From the NCBI GenBank assembly GCA_036555245.1, contig DATBLP010000054.1, positions 54,406 to 118,405 of the forward strand: a stretch of DNA of 64,000 nt, given 5' to 3'. The position numbers and the translations under genes are program-made. Numbering within the stretch: position 1 is the first letter of the stretch; every line of letters begins with the position of its first letter. The notes under the pieces were generated by a model, which saw only the letters and a list, made by a program, of their open reading frames with translations, did not search any database and was not told where the DNA came from. Below are positions 11,828-23,626 of the stretch, piece by piece. Source of the DNA: Burkholderiales bacterium (GTDB lineage: Bacteria; Pseudomonadota; Gammaproteobacteria; Burkholderiales; SG8-39).

Positions 11828-12973
11828 TTACAGCGCCTGCCGGCGGTCCCCTTCGCTGAATCCGAGGAGCGGACCAGGGAATCCCCGGCCAAGCGCGATC
11901 ACTTTGAATAGCTCCCCCATCTCGGCGGCGCTCATGAGCCGGTTCGCCTGGTTCGCGAGCGGCAGAAACCTAGCGCCGTCCTCGGCAGGCGTTCTGGACA
12001 TGATCTGCGTAATCCCGCAATTGACGAGGAACTGGGCCTGGCCGGTGTAACCGAGCAGATCCAGCCCGCTTTCCCGGGCTGTGCGGGCGATTGCACTGAA
12101 ATCGACATGGCAGGTGATGTCCTGCAGTCCCGGCGCGAAGAAAGGATCGGGGTGGGCGTGATGGCGGTAGTGGCACATGAGGGTGCCGTCCTTCCGCTGC
12201 GCGTGGTAATACTCTTTGGCAGGAAAGCCGTAATCGATGAAGAGGGCCACGCCCCTCTCCAGGATCTGCGCGAGGCTGCGAATGAAGCCGAGCGCGGCGA
12301 GTTGGATTTCCGTGCAAAAGCCTTCCGGAAGATCCAGAGCCCGTGCAGCTGCAAGCGGTTCACCCGAGGCGATTCGCCAGGACCAGTCGAGCCGGTCGCT
12401 GCGGACGCCCACGCCGGCTTCCTCGATTCTTCCGCCTTCGACCCGCACCACGGTGGCAGGCATCGCGTCGAGGACTTCGTTGCCGAGCACGACTCCCGAG
12501 AACGCAGGCGGTAGGCGGTTCAGCCACGCGACGCGCTCGAGAAGGTGGGGGACTCTCGCCGCGAGGGTATCACGGCTGCGCTCACGCAGGTCGGCGGAAA
12601 GTTCGAGAATGAGATAGTTACGCGGCACGCGGCCCGAGCGCTCCAGCTCCTCTAGCAACGTGGCCGCGAGCGCGCCGCTGCCGGCGCCCACTTCGAGCAC
12701 CTCGTCAAAGCCGGATTCGAGTATCTGGTTGACCTGACGCGCGAGCGTCTGGCCGTAGAGCGGCGAAATCTCCGGCGCCGTGACGAAATCTCCCGCCTTT
12801 CCGAGCTTGCGACTCCCGGCGCTGTAGTAGCCGAGTCCCGGTGCGTACAAAGCAAGCTCCATATAGCGAGCAAAGCTTATCCAGCCGCCGTTTGCCGTGA
12901 TTTGTTCGCGAATGTGCGTGACCACCCGGTCGCTGTGAGCGCGTGCCTCGGGCGTGGGTTCGGGTAGCGGCAT
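11828..12973 (-). CDS. Class I SAM-dependent methyltransferase, DUF185 / MidA-NDUFAF7 family
   Basis: '[26 protein letters not shown]' and '[12 protein letters not shown]' are typical of this family. Confidence 0.8.
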
Positions 12974-13012
12974 GGAAAGCTGGGGAGGAGTATTCCGGTA
13001 TCATTCTAGGTC

Positions 13013-13762
13013 ATGTCAGAAGCGCTTTCAGGAAAAGTTGTGCTCATCACCGGAGGCGTCAAGCGCGTCGGTGCGGCGATCGCGCGCCGTCTGCACAGCC
13101 AGGGTGCGAAGGTCATGCTGCACTACCGGAGCTCGGAACGCGAAGCGAATGCTTTGCGGACCGAGCTGAATGCGCAACGCGACAATTCCGTCGCTCTCGT
13201 GCAGGCCGATCTGCTCGATCTCGCGGGACCGTCCGAGATTGTGAAGAACACCCTCAGCCGCTTCGACAGGCTGGATGCGCTCGTGAACAACGCCTCCGCT
13301 TTCTTTCCCACTCCAGTGGGCGAAATGACACTAGCGAACTGGGAGAGCCTCATTGGAGCCAATCTGCGCGCCCCACTTTTCCTTTCTCAGGCCGCCGCAC
13401 CACACCTGAGAAGGTGGGGCGGCACGATCGTCAACATTACCGACATTCATGCCGAACGGCCGCTCAAGAACTATGTCATCTACTCGGTGGCCAAGGCAGG
13501 ACTCGCGGGCCTCACGCGCTCGCTCGCGCGCGAGCTCGCGCCCGAGGTGCGCGTCAACGGCGTTGCGCCCGGTGCCATTGTTTGGCCCGAGGACGGCTCG
13601 TGGGACGAAGTCACGCGCCAGCGCATCGTGTCGCATACTTTGCTCAAGCGAACGGGCGATCCCGACGACGTCGCGCGCGCCGTGTATTATTTGATTGCAG
13701 AAGCGCCGTATGTGACGGGGCAGATCATCGCCGTGGATGGCGGCAGGAGCATCAACCTGTGA
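13013..13762 (+). CDS. Short-chain dehydrogenase/reductase, pteridine reductase-like
   Basis: '[15 protein letters not shown]' cofactor motif, 'NNAS', and the 'YSVAKAGL' catalytic Y-x3-K. Confidence 0.8.
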
Positions 13763-14613
13763 ATGCACCAGAAAGAATCCAGCTCTCTCGTAAGCAGCAA
13801 TTCGAAGCGGGCAAGCTCGAAAAGCGGTTGTGCCGTCTCGCCGGCGAAGCGATCGGCGACTACGGCATGATCTCACCTGGAGACCGTGTCATGGCGTGCC
13901 TGTCGGGCGGCAAGGACAGCTACGCCATGCTCGACGTTCTCATGAAGCTGCGCCAGCGCGCGCCGGTGGAATTCGAGATCTTTGCAGTCAATCTGGATCA
14001 GCGCCACCCGGGTTACCCGGAGCACGTGCTGCCCGACTATCTGAAGTCCCTAGGCGTCCCGTTCCGCATCGAGGTGCAGGATACCTATTCCGTCGTAAAG
14101 CGCATCGTTCCGCAGGGGGAAACCATGTGCGGGCTGTGTTCGCGCCTGCGCCGCGGCGTGCTTTATCGGGTCGCGCGCGAGATCGGTGCGACGAAGATCG
14201 CGCTCGGGCACCACCGCGACGACATCCTTGAGACCTTCTTCCTCAATCTCTTCTTCGGCGGCAAGATGAAAGCGATGTCGCCGAAGCTCCAATCCGACGA
14301 CGGTAAGCATATAGTCATCCGCCCGCTCGCTTACGTCGCCGAGAGCGATCTCGAGACCTATGCCGAGATCCGGAAATTCCCGATCATCCCCTGCGACCTG
14401 TGCGGCTCGCAGCCGACTCTGCAGCGGAAGCAGGTGAAAAGAATGCTCGCCGAGTGGGAGAAGCGCAATCCCGGGAGGCTAGAGTCGATGTTCCGCGCGC
14501 TCTCCGACATCGTGCCCTCGCATCTCATGGACCGAAAGCTCTTCGATTTCGCCGGGGTACGCGCTTTCGGGAAAGCGCAGGACGATGGGGACAAGGCTTT
14601 CGATCAGCAATAG
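13759..14613 (+). CDS. ttcA: tRNA 2-thiocytidine(32) synthetase
   Basis: PP-loop 'CLSGGKDS', '[10 protein letters not shown]' and 'CDLCGSQ'. GTG start with a GTGA overlap onto the preceding stop. The longer track ORF from 12943 is an off-target extension. Confidence 0.9.
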
Positions 14614-14621
14614 CACCCCAC

Positions 14622-15452
14622 ATGAGACTTCGAGCCCGCATCGCCGCCTTTGTGATCGCCTTGGGCATCGCTGCGCTCGCGCTTGCGCTGGTCAGCTGCG
14701 TGACCGCGCAGGACTGGCGCACAGCGAGCCAGGAGCCCGTCGGCCTCGCCCCCGATCCGGCCGTCACTCCCGAGCCGATCGTGCAAGTCTATGCGGCCCG
14801 CGTCATAGGCTGGCGTGGCGTTTTCGGCGTGCACACTTGGATCGCCATGAAGCGCGCCGCGGCCCCGGAGTACACGGTGTACGAAGTCATCGGCTGGCGG
14901 CTACGCTGGCAGGACACGGCCCTCGTGGTCCGACATCGGGCACCCGACGCGCGCTGGTTCGGAAGCGCACCGGAACTGATCGCAGAAAAGCGCGGGACCG
15001 GAGTCGAGGAGCTGATCGCACGCATCGACGCGGCCGCACGCAGCTACCCCTGGGCCGGCGAATACACCACGTGGCCTGGACCGAACTCCAATACCTTCAC
15101 AGCCTGGGTGCTGCGGGCAGTGCCTGAGCTCGGAGCCGATTTGCCGCCGACCGCAATCGGCAAGGATTACTTCGGGACGAAAGTCTTTGCCTCGGCGCCG
15201 AGCGGGCGCGGGTTCCAGTTTTCCCTATTCGGACTTGCGGGACTGACAGCCAGCGGCGTGGAAGGTCTAGAGATCAATCTGCTCGGGCTCACCTTTGGAC
15301 TGAATCCCTTTGATCCCGCGCTCAAGCTTCCGCTCGTGGGACGGCTTGGGGCGGCACGCCCGGCCGCCAAGGCGCTCGACCCGGGAGTCGATCAGGCAGG
15401 AGCAGCCCGGGCGAGAGTGAGCGGGAGCCCCGCCGCGGCACCTGCGCTCTAG
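14622..15452 (+). CDS. DUF3750-family protein (probable lipoprotein)
   Basis: Signal/lipobox 'LALVSC'. 'VFGVHTWIAMK...YTVYEVIGW' and 'YTTWPGPNSNTFTAWV' match my recollection of DUF3750. Start at the internal ATG 14622. Confidence 0.6.
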   Translation: MRLRARIAAFVIALGIAALALALVSCVTAQDWRTASQEPVGLAPDPAVTPEPIVQVYAARVIGWRGVFGVHTWIAMKRAAAPEYTVYEVIGWRLRWQDTALVVRHRAPDARWFGSAPELIAEKRGTGVEELIARIDAAARSYPWAGEYTTWPGPNSNTFTAWVLRAVPELGADLPPTAIGKDYFGTKVFASAPSGRGFQFSLFGLAGLTASGVEGLEINLLGLTFGLNPFDPALKLPLVGRLGAARPAAKALDPGVDQAGAARARVSGSPAAAPAL

Positions 15453-15562
15453 CGACTTCGGCGACAGGGATTTCACTTTAAGCGGACGGATCCCAAGTAG
15501 TTTGATGCTCTGTATTCCTTTTCTTGTCAAACTCGGATTGACATGCTAGGCTTTGCTCCGCT

Positions 15563-15826
15563 ATGAATTGCGCAGAACGCCTCGTATCGATCTTTGGCAG
15601 CCAAGCCGAAGTCGCGCGCGCGTTCCGGCTTGACCGCGCCGTCGTCAATAACTGGGTCAAGTCCGGGTATGTGCCGGCGCGCTGGGCCGCCGAGGTCGAA
15701 CGCGTCACCAACGGCGGCATCCACGCGGTGGAAGTACTTAACGAGGCCTCGGCCAAGAAGCCGGTAAAGGTCAAATCGCGTCCCGACGATCATCTGTTCG
15801 GGTCGCCTCTTTCGGGAAAGGAAGCC
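15563..15826 (+). other. Cro/YdaS-like HTH module plus linker, in frame with and not separated by a stop from the downstream aminotransferase
   Basis: 'FGSQAEVARAFRLDRAVVNNWVKSGYVPARWAAEVERVTNGG' matches the YdaS/Cro HTH pattern. Junction codons 15722-15829 were translated by hand and contain no stop. Confidence 0.55.
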
Positions 15827-17074
15827 ATGAACAATTTCGCACCCGCCAAACGCATCAGCTCGTTTCACCCGCCGCAGAGAACGCTCATGGGTCCCGGCCC
15901 GACCGAGATCCATCCGAGGGTGCTGACGACCATGAGCCAGCCGGCAATCGGGTACCTCGATCCCGTTTTCGTCGAGATGATGGAAGAGCTGAAAGCGCTC
16001 CTGCGTTACGTGTACCAGACCAAGAACCCCCTTACCTTCCCGGTCTCGGGACCCGGCTCGGTCGGCATGGAGTACTGCTTCGTCAACCTGGTCGCGCCCG
16101 GCGACAAGGTGATCGTATGCAGGAACGGCGTGTTTGGCGGCCGCATGATCGAGAACGTCGAGCGCTGCGGCGGCAAGGCCGTGATCGTCGAGGACGAGTG
16201 GGGCTCTCCGGTCGATCCGAACAAGCTCGAGGATGCGCTCAAGAAGAACCGCGACGCGCGCGTCGTGGCATTCGTGCACGGCGAGACCTCCACCGGCGTG
16301 CAATCGGACGCGAAGACGCTCGTCCAAGCCGCCCACAAGCATGACGCGATTGCGATCGTGGACGCGGTGACCACGCTCGGCGGATCGCCCGTGCTCGTGG
16401 ACGAATGGGAGATCGACGCCATCTACTCGGCAAGCCAGAAATGCCTCTCCTGCACGCCGGGCCTCTCGCCCGTTTCCTTCTCGGAGCGCGTCGTGGATTA
16501 CGTGAAGGCCCGCAAGGACAAGATCCACTCCTGGTTCATGGACATGAACCTGCTGCTCGGCTACTGGGGAGCGACGACGCGCACCTACCACCATACTGCG
16601 CCGACCAACTCGCTTTTCGGCCTGCACGAGGCGCTGCTATTGCTGCGCGAGGAGGGCATGGAGAACGCGTGGGCGCGCCACCAGCGCCATCACAATGCGC
16701 TTAAGGCGGGCCTGGAAGCGATGGGCCTCCGGTTCCTCGTAGACGAGAAGTACCAGCTGCCTCAGATGAACGCGGTGCGCTGCCCCGAAGGCGTCAACGA
16801 GGCCGAGGTGCGCAAGCGGCTCTTGAACGAGTTCAGCATCGAAATCGGCGCCGGGCTTGGCCCGCTCGCGGGGAAGATCTGGCGCATCGGCATCATGGGC
16901 TACTCCTGCCGGCCGGACAACGTGATGCTGTGCTTGTCGGCACTGGGCTCGGTGCTCTCCGACCTTGGCATGAGGATCCATGTCGGCGATGCGGAAGCCG
17001 CGGCGCACAGTGCTTACGCCTCGATGCACGCCAAGGCCGCGCAGCAAAAGCAGAAAAGCCGCGCCGCGGCCTGA
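15827..17074 (+). CDS. Class-V PLP aminotransferase (serine--glyoxylate / alanine--glyoxylate type); the ORF is open upstream to 15563
   Basis: 'LMGPGPTEIHPRV', 'HGETSTGV' and 'SASQKCL' (PLP Lys) are present. A strong SD (GGAAAGGAAG) sits immediately before the ATG at 15827. Confidence 0.9.
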   Translation: MNNFAPAKRISSFHPPQRTLMGPGPTEIHPRVLTTMSQPAIGYLDPVFVEMMEELKALLRYVYQTKNPLTFPVSGPGSVGMEYCFVNLVAPGDKVIVCRNGVFGGRMIENVERCGGKAVIVEDEWGSPVDPNKLEDALKKNRDARVVAFVHGETSTGVQSDAKTLVQAAHKHDAIAIVDAVTTLGGSPVLVDEWEIDAIYSASQKCLSCTPGLSPVSFSERVVDYVKARKDKIHSWFMDMNLLLGYWGATTRTYHHTAPTNSLFGLHEALLLLREEGMENAWARHQRHHNALKAGLEAMGLRFLVDEKYQLPQMNAVRCPEGVNEAEVRKRLLNEFSIEIGAGLGPLAGKIWRIGIMGYSCRPDNVMLCLSALGSVLSDLGMRIHVGDAEAAAHSAYASMHAKAAQQKQKSRAAA

Positions 17075-17100
17075 CGTAACCCTCTCTGTTGCAGGGTCTT

Positions 17101-17134
17101 GCAAGCCCGCTCGATGCGGGCTTGCGCTTTGTTG
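17101..17134 (+). terminator. Rho-independent terminator after the aminotransferase
   Basis: Perfect 10-bp stem GCAAGCCCGC-TCGAT-GCGGGCTTGC followed by GCTTTGTTG. Confidence 0.7.
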
Positions 17135-17168
17135 AGCGATCGCTCATAATGATTGAGCAATCGCTCAA
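17132..17168. promoter_or_regulatory. Tandem palindromic operator-like sites upstream of the TetR gene
   Basis: TTGAGCGATCGCTCA (perfect palindromic core) and TTGAGCAATCGCTCAA (one mismatch pair) lie 6 nt apart, just upstream of the tetR-family gene and efflux operon. Confidence 0.6.
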
Positions 17169-17194
17169 TCCCCAGATCACCTCCACGGTTCTGC

Positions 17195-17860
17195 ATGGCC
17201 CGGCCCGCCGCTTCCCACGTCACTTCCCGTTCCTCATCGGGCGATCAGAAGGAACGGTTGATCTCGGCCACCGAGCAGCTGCTGTGCTCGCGGGGTTTGG
17301 CGTGTGTCACAACGCGTGATATTGCGCGCGCAGCCAAGGTCGCTGAGGGCGCGCTCTATCACCATTTCGGCGACAAGGCCGAGCTGATCCTCGAGGTCGT
17401 GCTACACGGAGTCGGCGAGTTCCGGGAGGTGCTGGACAGTCTGCCCTTGCAGGTCGGGCAGAATACCGTGCAGAAGAATCTCGAACGCGTGCTGGAGAGC
17501 GCGTTTCACTTCCATCACCGTGTCGCCTCGCTGATGTGCTCGCTTTTCGCCGACCAGCAGCTCCTTGCGCGCGTGCGCGGCATCATGAACGAACGCTGTA
17601 TCGGGCCAGGGCGCACTACGTCGACCCTCGCCGCGTATCTGCGCGCTGAGCAACGGCTGGGGCGCGTATCGGAGGACGCCCTGACCGAGCCGGCGGCCGA
17701 GCTTCTGCTCGCCGCAAGCTTCAACAGGGCCTTGCATGACCATTTCTACGGGATAAGGGACGAGCTTAGGGTGCGCCGCTGTCTGAGGGACGCCGTCCGG
17801 GCACTGCTTGCAGGTCTCGGCCCGGAGAGCGCGCGGACAAGAGGAAAGGAAAAACGATGA
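17195..17860 (+). CDS. TetR/AcrR-family transcriptional repressor
   Basis: N-terminal HTH 'TTRDIARAAKVAEGALYHHFGDK'. I chose the ATG at 17195 because the TTG at 17153 lies inside the operator. Confidence 0.85.
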   Translation: MARPAASHVTSRSSSGDQKERLISATEQLLCSRGLACVTTRDIARAAKVAEGALYHHFGDKAELILEVVLHGVGEFREVLDSLPLQVGQNTVQKNLERVLESAFHFHHRVASLMCSLFADQQLLARVRGIMNERCIGPGRTTSTLAAYLRAEQRLGRVSEDALTEPAAELLLAASFNRALHDHFYGIRDELRVRRCLRDAVRALLAGLGPESARTRGKEKR

Positions 17861-19353
17861 GTGCGCGCTTTTCGCTCTGGCGTCTCACGATCGCCGCTGC
17901 AGCCGCCTTGCTTTCGGCCTGCGCTGTCGGCCCCGACTACCGCGCGCCGGAGACCCCTGCGGCCGGCCCATACACCGAAAAGCACCAGCCGGTACAGACC
18001 GAATCGGCTCCTGTGCACGGCGGCGAAGCCCAGCGCTTCGAAGTCGGCGCGGAGATCTCGGCCGACTGGTGGAAACTCTTCGGCTCACCGGAACTCGACA
18101 AGCTCATCCGCGCCGGGCTGGCAGGCAATCCAACGCTGGATGCAGCGCAGGCGGCGCTGCGGCAGGCCGAGGAAAACCTCAATGCCCAGTATGCCGTGCT
18201 CTACCCGAGCGTGGATGCGAGCCTGTCGGCGAAGCGTCAGCGCATCACCGGGGCGGCCTTCGGAAATCCGTCGATCCCCACCAGTGTGTTCAACCTCTAC
18301 AACGCCTCGGTGAACGTCTCCTACGCCATCGACCTTGCCGGTGGGGCACGCCGCGAGTTCGAGGCGTTGGAGGCCACGATCGACTTCCAGCGCTTTCAGC
18401 TCGAGGCCGCTCATCTCTCTCTGACGGCCAATATCGTCACGACCGGGTTCCGCGAAGCGTCGCTGCGCGAGCAGGTCCGCGCGACGCGCGAGATCATCGA
18501 GGCGCTAGATCGACAGGTGCAGCTGGTAGAGAAGCAGTTCGCGCTCGGCGCAATCTCCCGCTCGGACGTCCTCGCTCAGCGGGCCCAGCTCGCCCAGACG
18601 CGCGCCAACCTGCCGCCGCTCGAGAAAGCGCTCGCACAAACGCGCAACCAGCTCGCGGTCCTGATCGGCAAGCCTCCCGCCGAGGCTGGGCTGCCCGAGC
18701 TCGACTTGACGGCGTTCCAGCTGCCGACGAGCCTCCCGGTGAGCCTCCCGGCAGATCTGGTGCAACAGCGTCCCGATGTGCGCGCGGCCGAGGCCTTGCT
18801 GCGGCAGACGAACGCGCGCATCGGCGTGGCGCAGGCGCTCATGTTCCCGCAATTGACGCTGAGCGGCAGCTATGGAACGGCGGCCACGCGCACGGCCGAA
18901 CTCTTCGATCCGGGAACTCAGCTGTGGAATATCGGCGCGAGCCTGCTCCAGCCAATTTTCCACGCGGGGCAGCTGCAGGCGAGGAAACGCGGCGCAGTCG
19001 CCGCCTACGAGCAGGCGTTCGCGCAGTATCGCCAAGCCGTGCTCGGCGCGTTCCAGAACGTGGCCGACGTGCTCCTCGCGCTCGATTTCGACGCGGCAGC
19101 GCTCAAGGCGCAGGCCGAGGCCGAGGCGGCGTCGCGCGAAAGCCTCGAAGTGACGCGGGCACAGCTCCAGTTTGGGGCGGCGAACTACCTCGCGCTCCTG
19201 AACGCCCAGCGCCAGTACGAGCAGGCGAGGATCGGCCTGGTGCAGGCGCAGGCCACGCGCTACTCGGACACCGCGGCGCTGTTCCAGGCGCTCGGCGGCG
19301 GATGGTGGCGGCGCAGCGGCCGGGGCGAGGCTCCCGCCGCGCTCGCGGACTGA
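17857..19353 (+). CDS. RND efflux outer-membrane factor lipoprotein (NodT/OprM family)
   Basis: Lipobox 'LLSAC' followed by 'GPDYRAP'. Two OEP repeats. ATGA overlap with tetR. Confidence 0.9.
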   Translation: MSARFSLWRLTIAAAAALLSACAVGPDYRAPETPAAGPYTEKHQPVQTESAPVHGGEAQRFEVGAEISADWWKLFGSPELDKLIRAGLAGNPTLDAAQAALRQAEENLNAQYAVLYPSVDASLSAKRQRITGAAFGNPSIPTSVFNLYNASVNVSYAIDLAGGARREFEALEATIDFQRFQLEAAHLSLTANIVTTGFREASLREQVRATREIIEALDRQVQLVEKQFALGAISRSDVLAQRAQLAQTRANLPPLEKALAQTRNQLAVLIGKPPAEAGLPELDLTAFQLPTSLPVSLPADLVQQRPDVRAAEALLRQTNARIGVAQALMFPQLTLSGSYGTAATRTAELFDPGTQLWNIGASLLQPIFHAGQLQARKRGAVAAYEQAFAQYRQAVLGAFQNVADVLLALDFDAAALKAQAEAEAASRESLEVTRAQLQFGAANYLALLNAQRQYEQARIGLVQAQATRYSDTAALFQALGGGWWRRSGRGEAPAALAD

Positions 19354-19391
19354 GCCGGAGCCGGGGGAAGAGAATCTTTGGAGTCCAACTC

Positions 19392-20519
19392 ATGACCAAA
19401 CGCATGATCATCATGCTCGCTCTCGTCGGAATGCTGTTCGGCGGGATATTCGGTTTCAAGGCCTTCATCGGAAGCTTCATCAAGAAGAAGATCGCCGAGC
19501 AGGGTATCCCGCCGCAGACGGTATCGACCGCGAAGGCAGGGATGTCGGAATGGCAGGGCGAATTCCAGGCCGTGGGAACGCTGCGCGCGGTGCGCGGTGC
19601 CGACATCGCCCCCGAGGTACCCGGCGTGATCACGACGATCCACTTCCAGTCGAGCCAGGAAGTCCGGGAAGGCGCACCCCTGGTTCAATTGAACAATGAA
19701 GCCGACCTCGCAAAGCTGCAGTCGCTCACCGCCGCGATGGATCTTGCCCAGGTTGTCTACGAGCGTGACAAGAAGCAGCTGGAGATCCAGGCCGTGAGCC
19801 AGGCGGTCGTTGACGCGGACGCGGCGAACCTGAAGAGCGCCAAGGCGCAGCTCGCCGAGCAACAGGCGCTCCTCAACAAGAAGCTCGTGCGCGCGCCGTT
19901 TGCCGGGCGTTTGGGAATCCGCGCCGTCGACGTCGGTCAGTACGTGACCGCGGGAACCAAGCTCGTGACACTGCAGGCGCTCGACCCCGTCTACGTGGAT
20001 TTCTTCGCCCCGCAGAAATCGCTCGGCCAGATCAAACTCGGGCAAAAAATCACCCTGAAAACCGACGCTTTTGCCGGCGAGCAGTTCGCGGGCGAGATCA
20101 GCTCGATCGACCCCAAGGTGGATCCGGCGACTCGCAACGTGCAGATCAGGGCGACCGTGCGCAACCCGAAGCGCAAGCTGCTGCCGGGGATGTTCGCCAC
20201 CGTAAGCATCGCCTCGGGAGGGCCGCAGCGCTTCCTTACCCTGCCGCAGACCGCGGTCTCCTATAACCCCTACGGCAACACCGTGTTTACCGTCGAAGAA
20301 CGGAAGGGCGAGGACGGTAAGACCGCACTCTTGGCACAGCAGAAGTTTGTCACCACCGGTGAGACGCGCGGCGACCAGGTCGCGATTCTTTCCGGGATCA
20401 AGGAGGGCGAGACCGTCGTGACGGCAGGCCAGATCAAGCTGCGCTCGGGCGTGCCGGTGGTCGTCAACAACTCGATCCAGCCGGCGAACGAGCCGGCGCC
20501 GCAACCGAAGGACCAGTAG
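19392..20519 (+). CDS. RND efflux membrane-fusion (periplasmic adaptor) protein
   Basis: N-terminal TM anchor, then lipoyl, alpha-hairpin and beta-barrel pattern ('VRAPFAGRLG', 'LPGMFATV'). The true start is the ATG at 19392 within the longer track ORF. Confidence 0.9.
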   Translation: MTKRMIIMLALVGMLFGGIFGFKAFIGSFIKKKIAEQGIPPQTVSTAKAGMSEWQGEFQAVGTLRAVRGADIAPEVPGVITTIHFQSSQEVREGAPLVQLNNEADLAKLQSLTAAMDLAQVVYERDKKQLEIQAVSQAVVDADAANLKSAKAQLAEQQALLNKKLVRAPFAGRLGIRAVDVGQYVTAGTKLVTLQALDPVYVDFFAPQKSLGQIKLGQKITLKTDAFAGEQFAGEISSIDPKVDPATRNVQIRATVRNPKRKLLPGMFATVSIASGGPQRFLTLPQTAVSYNPYGNTVFTVEERKGEDGKTALLAQQKFVTTGETRGDQVAILSGIKEGETVVTAGQIKLRSGVPVVVNNSIQPANEPAPQPKDQ

Positions 20520-20533
20520 GCCGGAGGCCCGGA

Positions 20534-23500
20534 ATGAAGAAGTTCACGGATATTTTCATCGAGCGGCCGGTCCTCGCGACGGTCGTAAGCCTAACGATTC
20601 TCGTGCTCGGCTTGCGCTCGATCGGCCTCTTGCCCGTGCTGCAGTATCCGCGCACGCAGAACGCCGTCGTGACTGTTACGACGACCTACGTGGGCGCGGA
20701 TCCGGCGCTGGTCGCCGGATTCATCACCACGCCGCTCGAGAATTCGATCGCGCAGGCGAACGGCATCGATTACATGAGCTCGGTGAGTCGCCAGAGCGTG
20801 AGCACCATCACTGCGGCGCTGCGGCTGAACTACGAGCCGGACAAGGCGCTCACCGAAATCAACACCAAGGTCAACGCGGTCCTCAACCAGTTGCCGCCGG
20901 GCTCGCAGCAGCCCGTGATCAAGGTTCAGATCGGACAGACGCTCGCGGCGATGTACATCGGCTTCGCGAGCGACGTGCTCACGCCTAACAAGATCACCGA
21001 TTACCTGATCCGCGTGGTCCAGCCGAAACTGCAGGCAGTCGAAGGCGTGCAGACGGCCGAAATCCTCGGTGGAAAACTGTTTGCGCTCCGGGCATGGCTC
21101 GATCCGGACAAGCTGGCCGCCTACAACCTCACCGCCGCCGACGTCAGCGCCGCTCTCACGGCCAACAACTTCCTTTCCGCGGTCGGCGCGACCAAGGGTC
21201 AGATGGTCCAGGTCAACCTTACCGCATCGACCGACGTCCGGACGGTGGAGGATTTCCGTAACCTCGTCATCAAGCAACGGGGTGGCGCCGTCGTGAGGTT
21301 GAGCGACGTCGCGAATGTGACTCTCGGGTCCGAGGACTACGATTCGGAAGTCGGCTTCGACGGGAAGAAGGCCGTGTACATCGGCATGCAGGTCGCGCCG
21401 ACAGCGAACCTGCTCGAGGTCATCGCGCGCGTGCGCGACGTCTTCCCGGGCATCCAGGCCCAGCTGCCCCAGGGCCTGCAGGGCCAGATTGTCTACGACT
21501 CGACCAAGTTCGTGAACAGCGCGATCGACGAAGTCGTCTGGACCATCGCCGAAGCGCTCGTCATCGTGACGCTCGTGGTGTTCGCTTTTCTCGGCTCGCT
21601 GCGCGCGGTCCTGATACCCACGGTCGCGATTCCTCTCTCGCTGGTCGGAACGTTCACGATGATGTTCGCGCTCGGTTACTCGATCAATTTGCTGACGCTG
21701 CTCGCCCTGGTCCTCGCGATCGGCCTGGTGGTGGACGACGCCATCATCGTAGTCGAGAACGTCGAACGCCACCTCGAGGAAGGCATGAAGCCGACCCAGG
21801 CGGCGATCCTCGCGGCGCGCGAGCTCGCCAACCCCATCATCGCGATGGCGCTCGTGCTGGTGGCCGTGTACGTGCCGATCGGGTTCCTCGGCGGGCTGAC
21901 CGGCGCGCTTTTCACCGAATTCGCGTTCACGCTGGTCGGCGCGGTGATCGTGTCGGCGATCGTCGCGCTGACGCTCTCGCCCATGATGTGCGCGCGGATG
22001 CTCAGGCCGCACGATCCCAACCAGAGGGGTTGGGACATAAAGCTAGTCCTCTTCCTCGATAACGCGTTCGATACGCTGCACAGACGCTACGAGCATCTCC
22101 TGGGCAGAACGCTCAACTACGTGCCGGTGACGGCCGTCTTCGCGGCCATCGTGCTCGGGAGCATCTATTTCCTCTATGCGACCGCGAAATCCGAGCTCGC
22201 CCCTGCGGAAGACCAGGGCGTGATCATCAGCTCCGCGCAGGCCGCGCCCAACTCCACGCTGCAGCAGCGCCAGCTCTACACGCGTCAGGTCTTCGAAACA
22301 ATCAAGAAGCACCCGGAAACCGATCACGTGTTCCAGATCGATATCCCGGGGCAGACGCTCGCCGGAATGGTGCTGAAGCCCTGGAACGAGCGCAAGGCCA
22401 CGGCCGCCCAGCTTCAACCGGGCGTGCAGCAGGAGCTGGCAAGCATCGCCGGCCTGCGTGCGGTGGCGTTTCAACCGCCCCCGCTTCCCGGGGCCTTCGG
22501 CCTGCCGGTGCAGTTCGTGATCCAGACGACCGAGCCCTTCGAGCGACTGAACGAAGTGGCTTCGGCTTTCTATCAGGAGGCGCAGAAGAGCGGCAGATTC
22601 TTCTTCGTCGACAATGACCTGCGTTACGATCTGCCGCAGTCGACGGTCGTGATCGACCGGGAGCTGACGGCCCAGCTCGGCCTCACCATGAAGGACGTAG
22701 GCGCGGCCCTGTCATCCCTGCTCGGCGGCGGCTACGTCAACTACTTCAGCTTCCACGACCGAGCCTACAAGGTCATTCCCCAGGTGCAGCAAGCCGATCG
22801 GCTGAACGCTGACCAGCTGAAGAGCACTTATATCCGGACTGCGAGCGGGGACTCGGTCCCGCTCTCCACCGTCGTGCACATCACGACCAAGACCGTTCCC
22901 CAGGCGCTCAACCGCTTCCAGCAGCAGAACTCCGCCACGATTTCCGGAGTGCCCTTCATCGGCGTGACCCAGGGGGACGCGATCGCGTACCTGCAGGACC
23001 TCGCCGCAAGGACGCTGCCTCAAGGGTACTCGGTGGACTATTCCGGACCGTCGCGGCAGTTCATTCAGGAATCGAGCGCGCTGCTCGTGACATTCTTCTT
23101 TGCGCTCATCATCATCTTCCTCGCGCTCGCGGCGCTCTTCGAGAGTTTCCGCGACCCGCTGATCATCCTCATCTCGGTTCCCATGTCGATCTGCGGCGCT
23201 CTCATCTTCGTAAGCCTCGGAATCGGCGGGGCGAGCCTCAACATATACACAGAGGTGGGGCTGGTGACCCTGATCGGGCTCATCAGCAAGCACGGCATCC
23301 TGATCGTCGAGTTCGCCAACAACCTGCAGAATCAGGGAATGTCAAAACGAGAGGCGATCGGCCGCGCGGCGGGCATCCGGCTGCGCCCGATCCTGATGAC
23401 CACGGGAGCGATGGTGTTCGGCGTCGTGCCCCTCCTCATCGCGAGCGGGGCGGGCGCGGTGAGCCGCTTCCACATGGGGCTGGTGATCTTTAGCGGTATC

Positions 23501-23626
23501 GCAATCGGGACCCTGTTCACGCTCTTCGTCGTTCCGGCGATGTATCTGCTGCTCGCGGCCGACCACTCGAAGCGGACGACGGGCGAAGCATTGCCGGCAC
23601 CGGGCGGGCACACGGGAACACACTGA
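20534..23626 (+). CDS. RND multidrug efflux permease (AcrB/MdtB HAE1 family)
   Basis: 1030 aa with 12-TM architecture. 'FIERPVLATV' N-terminus and the 'VVDDAIVVVENV' proton-relay region. Confidence 0.95.
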   Translation: MKKFTDIFIERPVLATVVSLTILVLGLRSIGLLPVLQYPRTQNAVVTVTTTYVGADPALVAGFITTPLENSIAQANGIDYMSSVSRQSVSTITAALRLNYEPDKALTEINTKVNAVLNQLPPGSQQPVIKVQIGQTLAAMYIGFASDVLTPNKITDYLIRVVQPKLQAVEGVQTAEILGGKLFALRAWLDPDKLAAYNLTAADVSAALTANNFLSAVGATKGQMVQVNLTASTDVRTVEDFRNLVIKQRGGAVVRLSDVANVTLGSEDYDSEVGFDGKKAVYIGMQVAPTANLLEVIARVRDVFPGIQAQLPQGLQGQIVYDSTKFVNSAIDEVVWTIAEALVIVTLVVFAFLGSLRAVLIPTVAIPLSLVGTFTMMFALGYSINLLTLLALVLAIGLVVDDAIIVVENVERHLEEGMKPTQAAILAARELANPIIAMALVLVAVYVPIGFLGGLTGALFTEFAFTLVGAVIVSAIVALTLSPMMCARMLRPHDPNQRGWDIKLVLFLDNAFDTLHRRYEHLLGRTLNYVPVTAVFAAIVLGSIYFLYATAKSELAPAEDQGVIISSAQAAPNSTLQQRQLYTRQVFETIKKHPETDHVFQIDIPGQTLAGMVLKPWNERKATAAQLQPGVQQELASIAGLRAVAFQPPPLPGAFGLPVQFVIQTTEPFERLNEVASAFYQEAQKSGRFFFVDNDLRYDLPQSTVVIDRELTAQLGLTMKDVGAALSSLLGGGYVNYFSFHDRAYKVIPQVQQADRLNADQLKSTYIRTASGDSVPLSTVVHITTKTVPQALNRFQQQNSATISGVPFIGVTQGDAIAYLQDLAARTLPQGYSVDYSGPSRQFIQESSALLVTFFFALIIIFLALAALFESFRDPLIILISVPMSICGALIFVSLGIGGASLNIYTEVGLVTLIGLISKHGILIVEFANNLQNQGMSKREAIGRAAGIRLRPILMTTGAMVFGVVPLLIASGAGAVSRFHMGLVIFSGIAIGTLFTLFVVPAMYLLLAADHSKRTTGEALPAPGGHTGTH

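Follow-up and report, generated by a model that had tools for sequence, protein, structure and literature searches.

A conserved, probably undescribed fusion of a Cro/YdaS-type helix-turn-helix domain to a class-V aminotransferase in at least 80 uncultured Burkholderiales species

The fused gene and its two modules

The subject of this work is a single open reading frame (ORF) located on the plus strand at positions 15563..17074 of a 64,000-nucleotide stretch of Burkholderiales DNA (assembly GCA_036555245.1, contig DATBLP010000054.1; the whole stretch is referred to here as the window, and positions are counted from its first letter). [quoted passage not shown] The coding region comprises the following features.

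15563..17074, plus strand: fused ORF consisting of HTH, tether and class-V aminotransferase (putative long isoform, 503 aa, ATG start)
15563..15757, plus strand: all-alpha Cro/YdaS-type HTH, residues 1-65, five predicted helices (from Pfam, AlphaFold2 (AF2), Foldseek, phmmer and the ratio of nonsynonymous to synonymous substitution rates (dN/dS))
15752..15790, plus strand: conserved basic tail A-K-K-P-V-K-V-K-S-R-P-D-D, residues 64-76, AKKPVKVKSRPDD (family pattern A[KR]KP[VIL][KR][VLM]KSRP[DE])
15791..15826, plus strand: variable tether, residues 77-88, which also holds an internal Shine-Dalgarno (SD) sequence, GGGAAAGGAAG, at 15814-15824 (predicted local distance difference test (pLDDT) < 50)
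15827..17074, plus strand: AGXT-family class-V aminotransferase cistron from an internal ATG (putative short isoform of 415 aa with the enzyme only; its Met shows no variation in the alignment)
16439..16441, plus strand: codon of Lys293, the PLP-binding lysine, in the motif IDAIYSASQK (class-V PLP-attachment pattern)

That the N-terminus is a Cro/YdaS-type HTH had been proposed from inspection alone, and the proposal is borne out by profile scans of residues 1-88, in which residues 6-59 match PF15943 (YdaS_toxin) with 39.1 bits, the gathering cut-off being 30, and PF14549 (P22_Cro) with 30.7 bits, where the cut-off is 30.2; in PHROGs the N-terminal segment groups with phage transcriptional regulators. 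The five helices predicted by AF2 span residues 3-11, 14-21, 25-34, 39-48 and 55-65, and the block-mean pLDDT over residues 1-60 is 84-89 when the HTH is modeled alone and 72-91 in the full-length model. The best Foldseek match of the HTH model is the Cro protein of Xfaso 1 (PDB ID: 3bd1; target-normalized TM-score 0.86, rmsd 1.3 Å, 30% identity), which phmmer also finds by sequence (E = 2.4e-4), and further Foldseek matches are P22 Cro (1rzs) and N15 Cro (6on0 and 2hin). The HTH core residues are invariant in the alignment of relatives, and by these models the domain is assigned to the Cro fold with confidence. Conservation of the basic tail that follows equals that of the HTH itself, with P67, K71, S72 and R73 invariant. 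Residues 4-50 (window 15563-15712) also resemble NCBIfam NF046037, 'carph-isopro domain-containing protein', at 32.6 bits, below its cut-off of 38; the name 'carph-isopro' had no match in the literature searched. No close relative of this HTH was present in the viral contigs searched, and the nearest unfused homologues of the enzyme have no Cro-like gene upstream.

Residues 89-503 constitute the AGXT-family class-V aminotransferase, an assignment that agrees with the serine/alanine-glyoxylate type recognized in the initial annotation. Residues 137-431 match PF00266 (Aminotran_5) with E = 5e-23 and 83 bits (cut-off 21.5), and the class I/II profile PF00155 reaches 20.5 bits over residues 130-268 only. 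Structural relatives in the PDB include Nostoc alanine-glyoxylate aminotransferase (1vjo, 348 bits), PucG (3isl, 316 bits), ureidoglycine-glyoxylate aminotransferase (3nnk, 284 bits) and human AGT (~257 bits). The class-V PLP-attachment pattern (PROSITE PS00595) occurs in 77/77 fused proteins, whose alignment shows no variation at K293, D267 or R441; by analogy, D267 and R441 may contact cofactor or substrate. The enzyme part thus looks catalytically competent, as judged from its residues. When it was compared with the NCBIfam equivalogs BhcA, PhnW and pyridoxamine-pyruvate transaminase the best score was 224 bits for BhcA (cut-off 650) and the others also fell far below theirs, so that there is no equivalog-level match that would name the substrates. 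Unfused homologues start at the position equivalent to residue 89 and are 57% identical to the fused enzyme part.

The distribution of the fused protein was examined in several ways. A whole-protein search returned at least 120 protein clusters of ~500 aa and 82-93% identity, each with both PF15943 and PF00266, a list that is biased toward fused proteins because the extra HTH raises their score. Loci were therefore sampled with the aminotransferase part alone as query and one genome per species, yielding 80 loci, all of them from metagenome-assembled genomes (MAGs) classified as Burkholderiales or 'Betaproteobacteria' plus one single-cell genome; some counts below refer to 81 junctions or loci rather than the 80 retrieved, other alignments took in 76-79 loci, and ~500 further homologues in GTDB lie outside this sample. 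When 1.8 billion proteins are clustered at 50% identity the fused family forms one full-length cluster, beyond which come relatives of ~400 aa that lack the HTH and share no more than 57% identity. Public records name the full-length fused proteins 'aminotransferase class V-fold PLP-dependent enzyme' or alanine-glyoxylate, serine-glyoxylate or serine-pyruvate transaminase. The initial annotation was not aware of a description of this architecture, and none of a Cro/YdaS domain with a class-V aminotransferase was found in the literature searched; the HTH-enzyme fusion, which is shared by 80 or more species of uncultured Burkholderiales from soil and freshwater, is thus probably undescribed.

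Conservation of the frame and of the internal start

In all 80 species-representative loci the HTH lies directly upstream of the enzyme, in the same frame and with no stop between the two modules, so that both the HTH and the readthrough are conserved among orthologs. The distance from HTH start to enzyme start takes the values 258, 261, 264, 267 and 273 nt. None of this variation lies between the HTH start and the KSR motif, which are 219 nt apart in 77/77 loci; it is found in the tether, where the interval from KSR to the enzyme Met falls into four length classes (39, 42, 45 and 48 nt), each a multiple of three. Parsimony on a neighbour-joining tree of the enzyme part alone gives 13 changes of tether length, a count that depends on this tree and has a hard minimum of 3. 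The tether is disordered in both AF2 models, that of the HTH alone and that of the full-length protein.

These data bear on the suggestion that a small Cro-like gene has lost its stop codon, leaving two independent cistrons with a functionless junction and an HTH that acts as if it were free. Independent cistrons would have their frame broken by two of every three indels, and no frame-breaking indel occurs among the 81 junctions, all of which are in frame, as are all four tether-length classes; a lost stop does not explain these in-frame indels. The absence of stops from the tether is by itself weak evidence as read from the sequences, since stops occur in 0/81 loci in the coding frame and in 35/81 in the +2 frame, but in only 4/81 in the +1 frame, a scarcity that would be expected to suit two cistrons equally well. 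The internal SD and ATG are likewise such as are found at a normal second cistron, and public databases are rich in HTH-only proteins of 85-125 aa. This last point is answered by the loci themselves. When the HTH alone was used as query many short proteins were returned, several of which, 85-125 aa long and encoded on long contigs, end at a stop codon or enter the enzyme gene in the wrong frame; in the six such loci that were checked (L081-L086) the protein switches frame, usually several times within a few hundred bases, and the jumps lie within the aminotransferase gene or its neighbours, including the short-chain dehydrogenase (SDR) gene where tested. The split two-gene state suggested by the HTH-only proteins is ruled out in these cases, as 6/6 come from frameshift-ridden assemblies with several frameshifts in the enzyme gene, and no intact split locus was found among the loci examined. 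We consider two independent cistrons improbable. The frameshift-ridden assemblies are also the source of the HTH-only 'YdaS family' or 'hypothetical' proteins P0152, P0167, P0169, P0172, P0173 and P0230; the contigs behind such proteins mostly bear names of the form contig_NNNN, and the aminotransferase and SDR genes are fragmented there too.

Selection on each segment was estimated as dN/dS by the pooled Nei-Gojobori method over 1951 locus pairs, giving 0.20 for the HTH, 0.18 for the basic tail, 0.36 for the variable tether and 0.10-0.18 for the enzyme. The value of ~0.20 implies that, in this frame, purifying selection acts on the HTH at the protein level, with a strength like that seen for the enzyme. 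The reading of the ORF as a genuine fusion, one of three entertained in the initial annotation, is supported by the frame kept in 80/80 loci, the in-frame changes of the linker, the dN/dS of the HTH and the Pfam matches; on this comparison of sequences the fusion is selected and not accidental.

The enzyme part also carries translation signals of its own. The sequence GGGAAAGGAAG (15814-15824) precedes the internal ATG at 15827 (residue 89), a pairing that had already been singled out as an internal start with a strong SD, and which comparison of the loci upholds: an SD-like core lies 5-17 nt upstream of the internal start in 76/81 loci, compared with 15% at random gene positions, and the predicted duplex with the anti-SD sequence has an energy of -5.9 kcal/mol vs a background of -2.7 kcal/mol. 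Every locus has kept a start codon where the enzyme part begins, including L033, L051, L077, L078 and L080, where it has moved by 1-2 codons, and L052, where it is TTG. The purine run persists despite changes in the encoded residues (G/E, S/K/N). The start site appears to be under selection, and an enzyme-only product is probably made too.

An opposing interpretation is that the long form alone is functional, as a single bifunctional protein, the internal SD and ATG being ancestral leftovers that are unused or negligibly used; in a variant of this interpretation the aminotransferase body serves mainly as a domain for ligand sensing and dimerization, as in MocR/GabR, and is not a working enzyme. 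The frame kept in 80/80 loci indicates selection for the long form, ribosomes arriving from the HTH would partly occlude the internal start, and the purine-rich motif also encodes G-[SKN]-[DE] residues, all of which would suit a single product. The persistence of the start codon where it has shifted by 1-2 codons, and its replacement in one locus by TTG, another start codon, argue for the contrary, as does an SD core that outlasts the amino acid changes at its position and retains its duplex energy well beyond background. The variant is further at odds with the strong constraint on the enzyme core, with the PLP motif found in 77/77 proteins, and with 57% identity to ordinary unfused enzymes. 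The single-product interpretation, including its variant, appears to us unlikely.

Promoter, candidate operator and surroundings

When the upstream regions are aligned on the start codon of the HTH, one sharply conserved block stands out amid unconserved sequence. In the window it comprises the following features.

15524..15529, plus strand: predicted -35 box TTGTCA, doubling as the left palindrome arm (TTGTCAA is invariant in 79/79 aligned promoters)
15525..15543, no strand assigned: 19-bp palindromic candidate operator TGTCAAACTCGGATTGACA (family consensus TGTCAAAnTnAnTTTGACA), overlapping the -35 box and the spacer
15547..15552, plus strand: predicted -10 box TAGGCT (family TAnnnT; from position-specific counts across relatives)

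The spacer between TTGTCA and TAGGCT is 17 nt. The palindrome is centered on a single base, and its spacer positions 8, 10, 12 and 14, which lie outside any promoter hexamer, are conserved like the hexamers themselves. It matches once in the 64-kb window, where 0.03 matches are expected by chance, and with up to 2 mismatches it is found at the gene's own promoter in 77/80 loci, while the 654 kb of flanking DNA contain no other copy. Both the HTH and the palindrome are missing from the nearest unfused homologues, so that the two features co-occur only in the fused clade. The K-S-R-P core of the basic tail is loosely AT-hook-like, and the center of the palindrome is A/T-rich; speculatively, and by analogy, the tail might touch this center as a minor-groove arm. 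In loci where the right arm reads TTGTCA (L018-L030, L022, L026, L029, L035, L036, L041, L044, L046, L053, L062, L067 and L076) the two arms form a partial direct repeat; this variant follows clades, and no obvious matching change is seen in the recognition helix.

A different promoter had been favored in the initial annotation, in which TTGACA (15538-15543) and TATGAA (15562-15567) would place the transcription start site (TSS) downstream of 15563, making the HTH-like frame part of an untranslated leader; on this view it would be a non-coding relic. Both hexamers are present in the letters, 18 nt apart, and no SD precedes 15563, as this proposal would have it. As a promoter the pair was rejected: it was not called by a consensus scanner, and TATGAA is not conserved, the corresponding position in relatives reading cATGAAC, which is fixed by the coding sequence ATGAAC, whereas the conserved -10 box is the TAnnnT that lies 17 nt past TTGTCA. 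A non-coding relic is also contradicted by the selection on the HTH (dN/dS 0.20, core residues invariant), by Pfam scores above threshold and by the confidently predicted Cro fold, and the absence of an SD is what a leaderless mRNA would show. An untranslated leader is thus highly improbable.

Between the end of the -10 box and the start codon there are 6-10 nt in 53/79 loci (10 nt in the window), and an SD precedes the HTH start in 6/80 loci only, with an anti-SD duplex of -1.5 kcal/mol. The combination of a close -10 box with the lack of an SD points to a leaderless or nearly leaderless mRNA with its TSS at or just before the ATG at 15563; we infer this start from the arrangement of the signals. 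Leaderless mRNAs are common for Cro/cI-type regulators. A scan of Rfam for known RNA elements gave chance-level matches only.

Downstream of the coding region lies one further feature.

17100..17135, plus strand: predicted intrinsic terminator (hairpin 17100-17126 plus T-run), with an 11-bp stem containing 8 G-C pairs, followed by CTTTGTTG (-22.3 kcal/mol)

A comparable hairpin and T-run was found in 29/79 relatives only. As far as can be told from these signals the unit appears to stand alone, with a promoter containing an operator, one ORF with two starts, and a terminator. Its neighbours in the window, at 11828-15452, are a Methyltransf_28 protein (minus strand), a short-chain dehydrogenase, a TtcA-like tRNA thiolase and a DUF3750 protein, with no phage genes. 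Upstream synteny is partial across the 80 loci (TtcA in 50/80, SDR in 38/80, DUF3750 in 30/80), other genes being inserted between DUF3750 and the fusion gene in some relatives, and the downstream genes are variable; conserved partners that might hint at the substrate were not seen. Just past the terminator, the palindromes TTGAGCGATCGCTCA (17132-17146) and TTGAGCAATCGCTCAA (17153-17168) lie over the listed TTG start (17153) of a TetR-family ORF (17153-17860), which precedes an operon for an outer-membrane factor, a membrane-fusion protein and a resistance-nodulation-division (RND) efflux protein (17857-23626); these palindromes at 17132-17168 are likely TetR operators, and similar sequence follows the fusion gene in L001. 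In L085 a RES-Xre toxin-antitoxin pair (RES domain and Xre_MbcA_ParS_C antitoxin, 1792-2912) lies immediately upstream of the fusion gene and divergent from it. Long ORFs at 12943-14613 (556 aa), 15527-16627 on the minus strand (366 aa) and 17808-20519 (903 aa) overlap real genes, either in another frame or from the opposite strand, and are spurious, as is typical of GC-rich DNA.

Proposed autoregulation and known counterparts

The arrangement suggests an HTH-enzyme that represses its own gene, is dimerized by its aminotransferase part, and is accompanied by an enzyme-only isoform, a reading that we hold to be moderately probable. Transcription from a sigma-70-type promoter (TTGTCA, 17 nt, TAGGCT) would begin at the 15563 ATG or a few nucleotides ahead of it, and ribosomes engaging the 5'-terminal AUG of the leaderless or nearly leaderless mRNA would read through into the enzyme to give a predicted product of 503 aa, made up of the HTH (residues 1-65), the basic tail, a flexible tether of ~12-25 residues and the class-V aminotransferase. 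AGXT-family class-V aminotransferases are obligate homodimers, and the all-alpha Cro domains of the P22/Xfaso 1 type dimerize weakly on their own; it would therefore be through the dimer of the enzyme body that a pair of HTHs is brought onto the 19-bp palindrome TGTCAAAnTnAnTTTGACA. Because this palindrome covers the -35 box and spacer, with its center near -25, a bound repressor would be expected to block RNA polymerase. The internal SD and the start codon at 15827, as their conservation suggests, would yield a 415-aa enzyme lacking the HTH; mixed dimers with one HTH would bind poorly, and repression would track the amount of the long form. More speculatively, the cofactor or substrate state of the enzyme might modulate DNA binding, as in other trigger enzymes.

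Several points weigh against this reading, besides the tree-dependent count of tether changes and the scarcity of tether stops in the +1 frame given above. The gap between the -10 box and the start codon is 11-54 nt in 24/79 loci, and the box was not found in 2/79; with distant or missing boxes leaderless initiation cannot be universal. The TAGGCT of the window is weak, matching TATAAT at only 3/6 positions, and the consensus scanner called no promoter in 15350-17250; it misses the window promoter because of this 3/6 match, and stronger -10 boxes occur in relatives (e.g., TAAAAT, TAGAAT and TAGACT). The right arm is TTGTCA rather than TTGACA (position 18 = T) in 26/76 loci, which breaks the dyad at one position. 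Mutual information between HTH and operator has little variation to work with, the recognition helix and operator core being nearly invariant, and its highest scores fall to whichever columns vary most. The AF2 models represent the monomer only, and every relative comes from an uncultured organism, as a MAG or single-cell genome.

The proposal can be extended to a two-protein circuit that senses a ratio. As only long-long dimers carry two HTHs, the short form could act through mixed dimers as a built-in anti-repressor, and the occupancy of the promoter would in that case be a readout of how leaderless and SD-dependent translation are balanced, possibly together with the PLP or substrate state. 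We offer this extension tentatively, as an idea that may well prove wrong. If true, it would couple transcription of an enzyme of glyoxylate and amino acid metabolism to the translational state of the cell, a design that to our knowledge has not been described for any PLP enzyme.

Among known systems, MocR, GabR and PdxR consist of an N-terminal HTH, a flexible linker and a fold-type-I PLP aminotransferase-like domain that dimerizes and senses effectors (PMC5320631, PMC4944035, PMC5734734). The fusion shares this layout with these members of the GntR family, with residues 1-65 as its HTH, followed from residue 66 onward by a segment modeled at low confidence (the MocR linker has ~25-30 residues) and then by an aminotransferase fold. 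Unlike MocR/GabR, its HTH is of the all-alpha Cro/YdaS type and not a GntR winged helix (no PF00392 match is listed at E <= 1), and its PLP domain is of class V (AGXT family, PF00266) and not class I (PF00155). It also differs from MocR in the 57% identity of its enzyme part to ordinary enzymes that stand alone, in a retained internal start from which an enzyme-only form would be made, and in a candidate operator that consists of a single compact 19-bp palindrome within the core promoter instead of spaced repeats. The likeness to MocR/GabR drawn in the initial annotation thus holds as an analogy but not as family membership, there being neither a GntR HTH nor a class-I domain: the fusion resembles MocR/GabR in design and is not a member of that family.

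Trigger enzymes offer a second comparison. PutA combines a ribbon-helix-helix (RHH) domain with proline dehydrogenase and pyrroline-5-carboxylate dehydrogenase (P5CDH), BirA combines a winged HTH with biotin ligase, and NadR is likewise a trigger enzyme. Trigger enzymes with a DNA-binding domain of their own also include archaeal RbkR (PMC5397151). Like PutA, BirA, NadR and RbkR, which repress their own pathway or their own gene and whose DNA binding depends on oligomeric or ligand state, the fusion carries an enzyme and an N-terminal DNA-binding domain in one polypeptide under selection; it differs from them in the fold of the DNA-binding domain and in the class of enzyme, and, unlike the PutA/BirA type, its predicted regulon is its own gene only, with no second site in the sampled DNA. 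We know of no classical trigger enzyme that combines a leaderless long form with an SD-driven enzyme-only form.

In fold and sequence family the HTH belongs with P22 Cro, Xfaso 1 Cro, N15 Cro and prophage YdaS. All-alpha Cro/YdaS proteins are small HTH proteins that act on pseudo-palindromic operators overlapping promoters; unlike these free-standing proteins of 60-100 aa from phages and prophages, the domain described here is permanently joined to an enzyme of housekeeping type, on the chromosome and in surroundings that are not those of a prophage. For the predicted isoforms a parallel exists in the transposase and inhibitor (Tnp/Inh) of Tn5, one of the N-terminal proteoform pairs reviewed in PMC13515050. 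There, as proposed here, one gene with two starts yields two in-frame products, of which the shorter is missing the N-terminal DNA-binding segment and can enter mixed oligomers that are inactive on DNA; unlike Tn5 Tnp/Inh, the present isoforms are deduced from conserved signals, and as the proteins are unrelated the parallel is one of analogy only.

These results have consequences for annotation and for the biology of the family. The 'genes' listed publicly for HTH-only members of this family are, in the six cases examined, frameshift artefacts, and both leaderless long forms and internal starts are worth recording. The hosts, uncultured Burkholderiales, are abundant in soil and freshwater metagenomes, where their fused proteins are publicly named as plain aminotransferases, and the unit is small enough (promoter, operator, one ORF and terminator) to be tested directly in a heterologous host. 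Enzymes that are also transcription factors, such as PutA and BirA, together with the MocR proteins, which are degenerate enzymes, are textbook cases of direct metabolic feedback, of which few architectures are known; if the proposed reading is true, the fusion would add a new one, in which a minimal phage-type Cro domain borrows the dimer interface of a class-V aminotransferase to act on a compact candidate operator.

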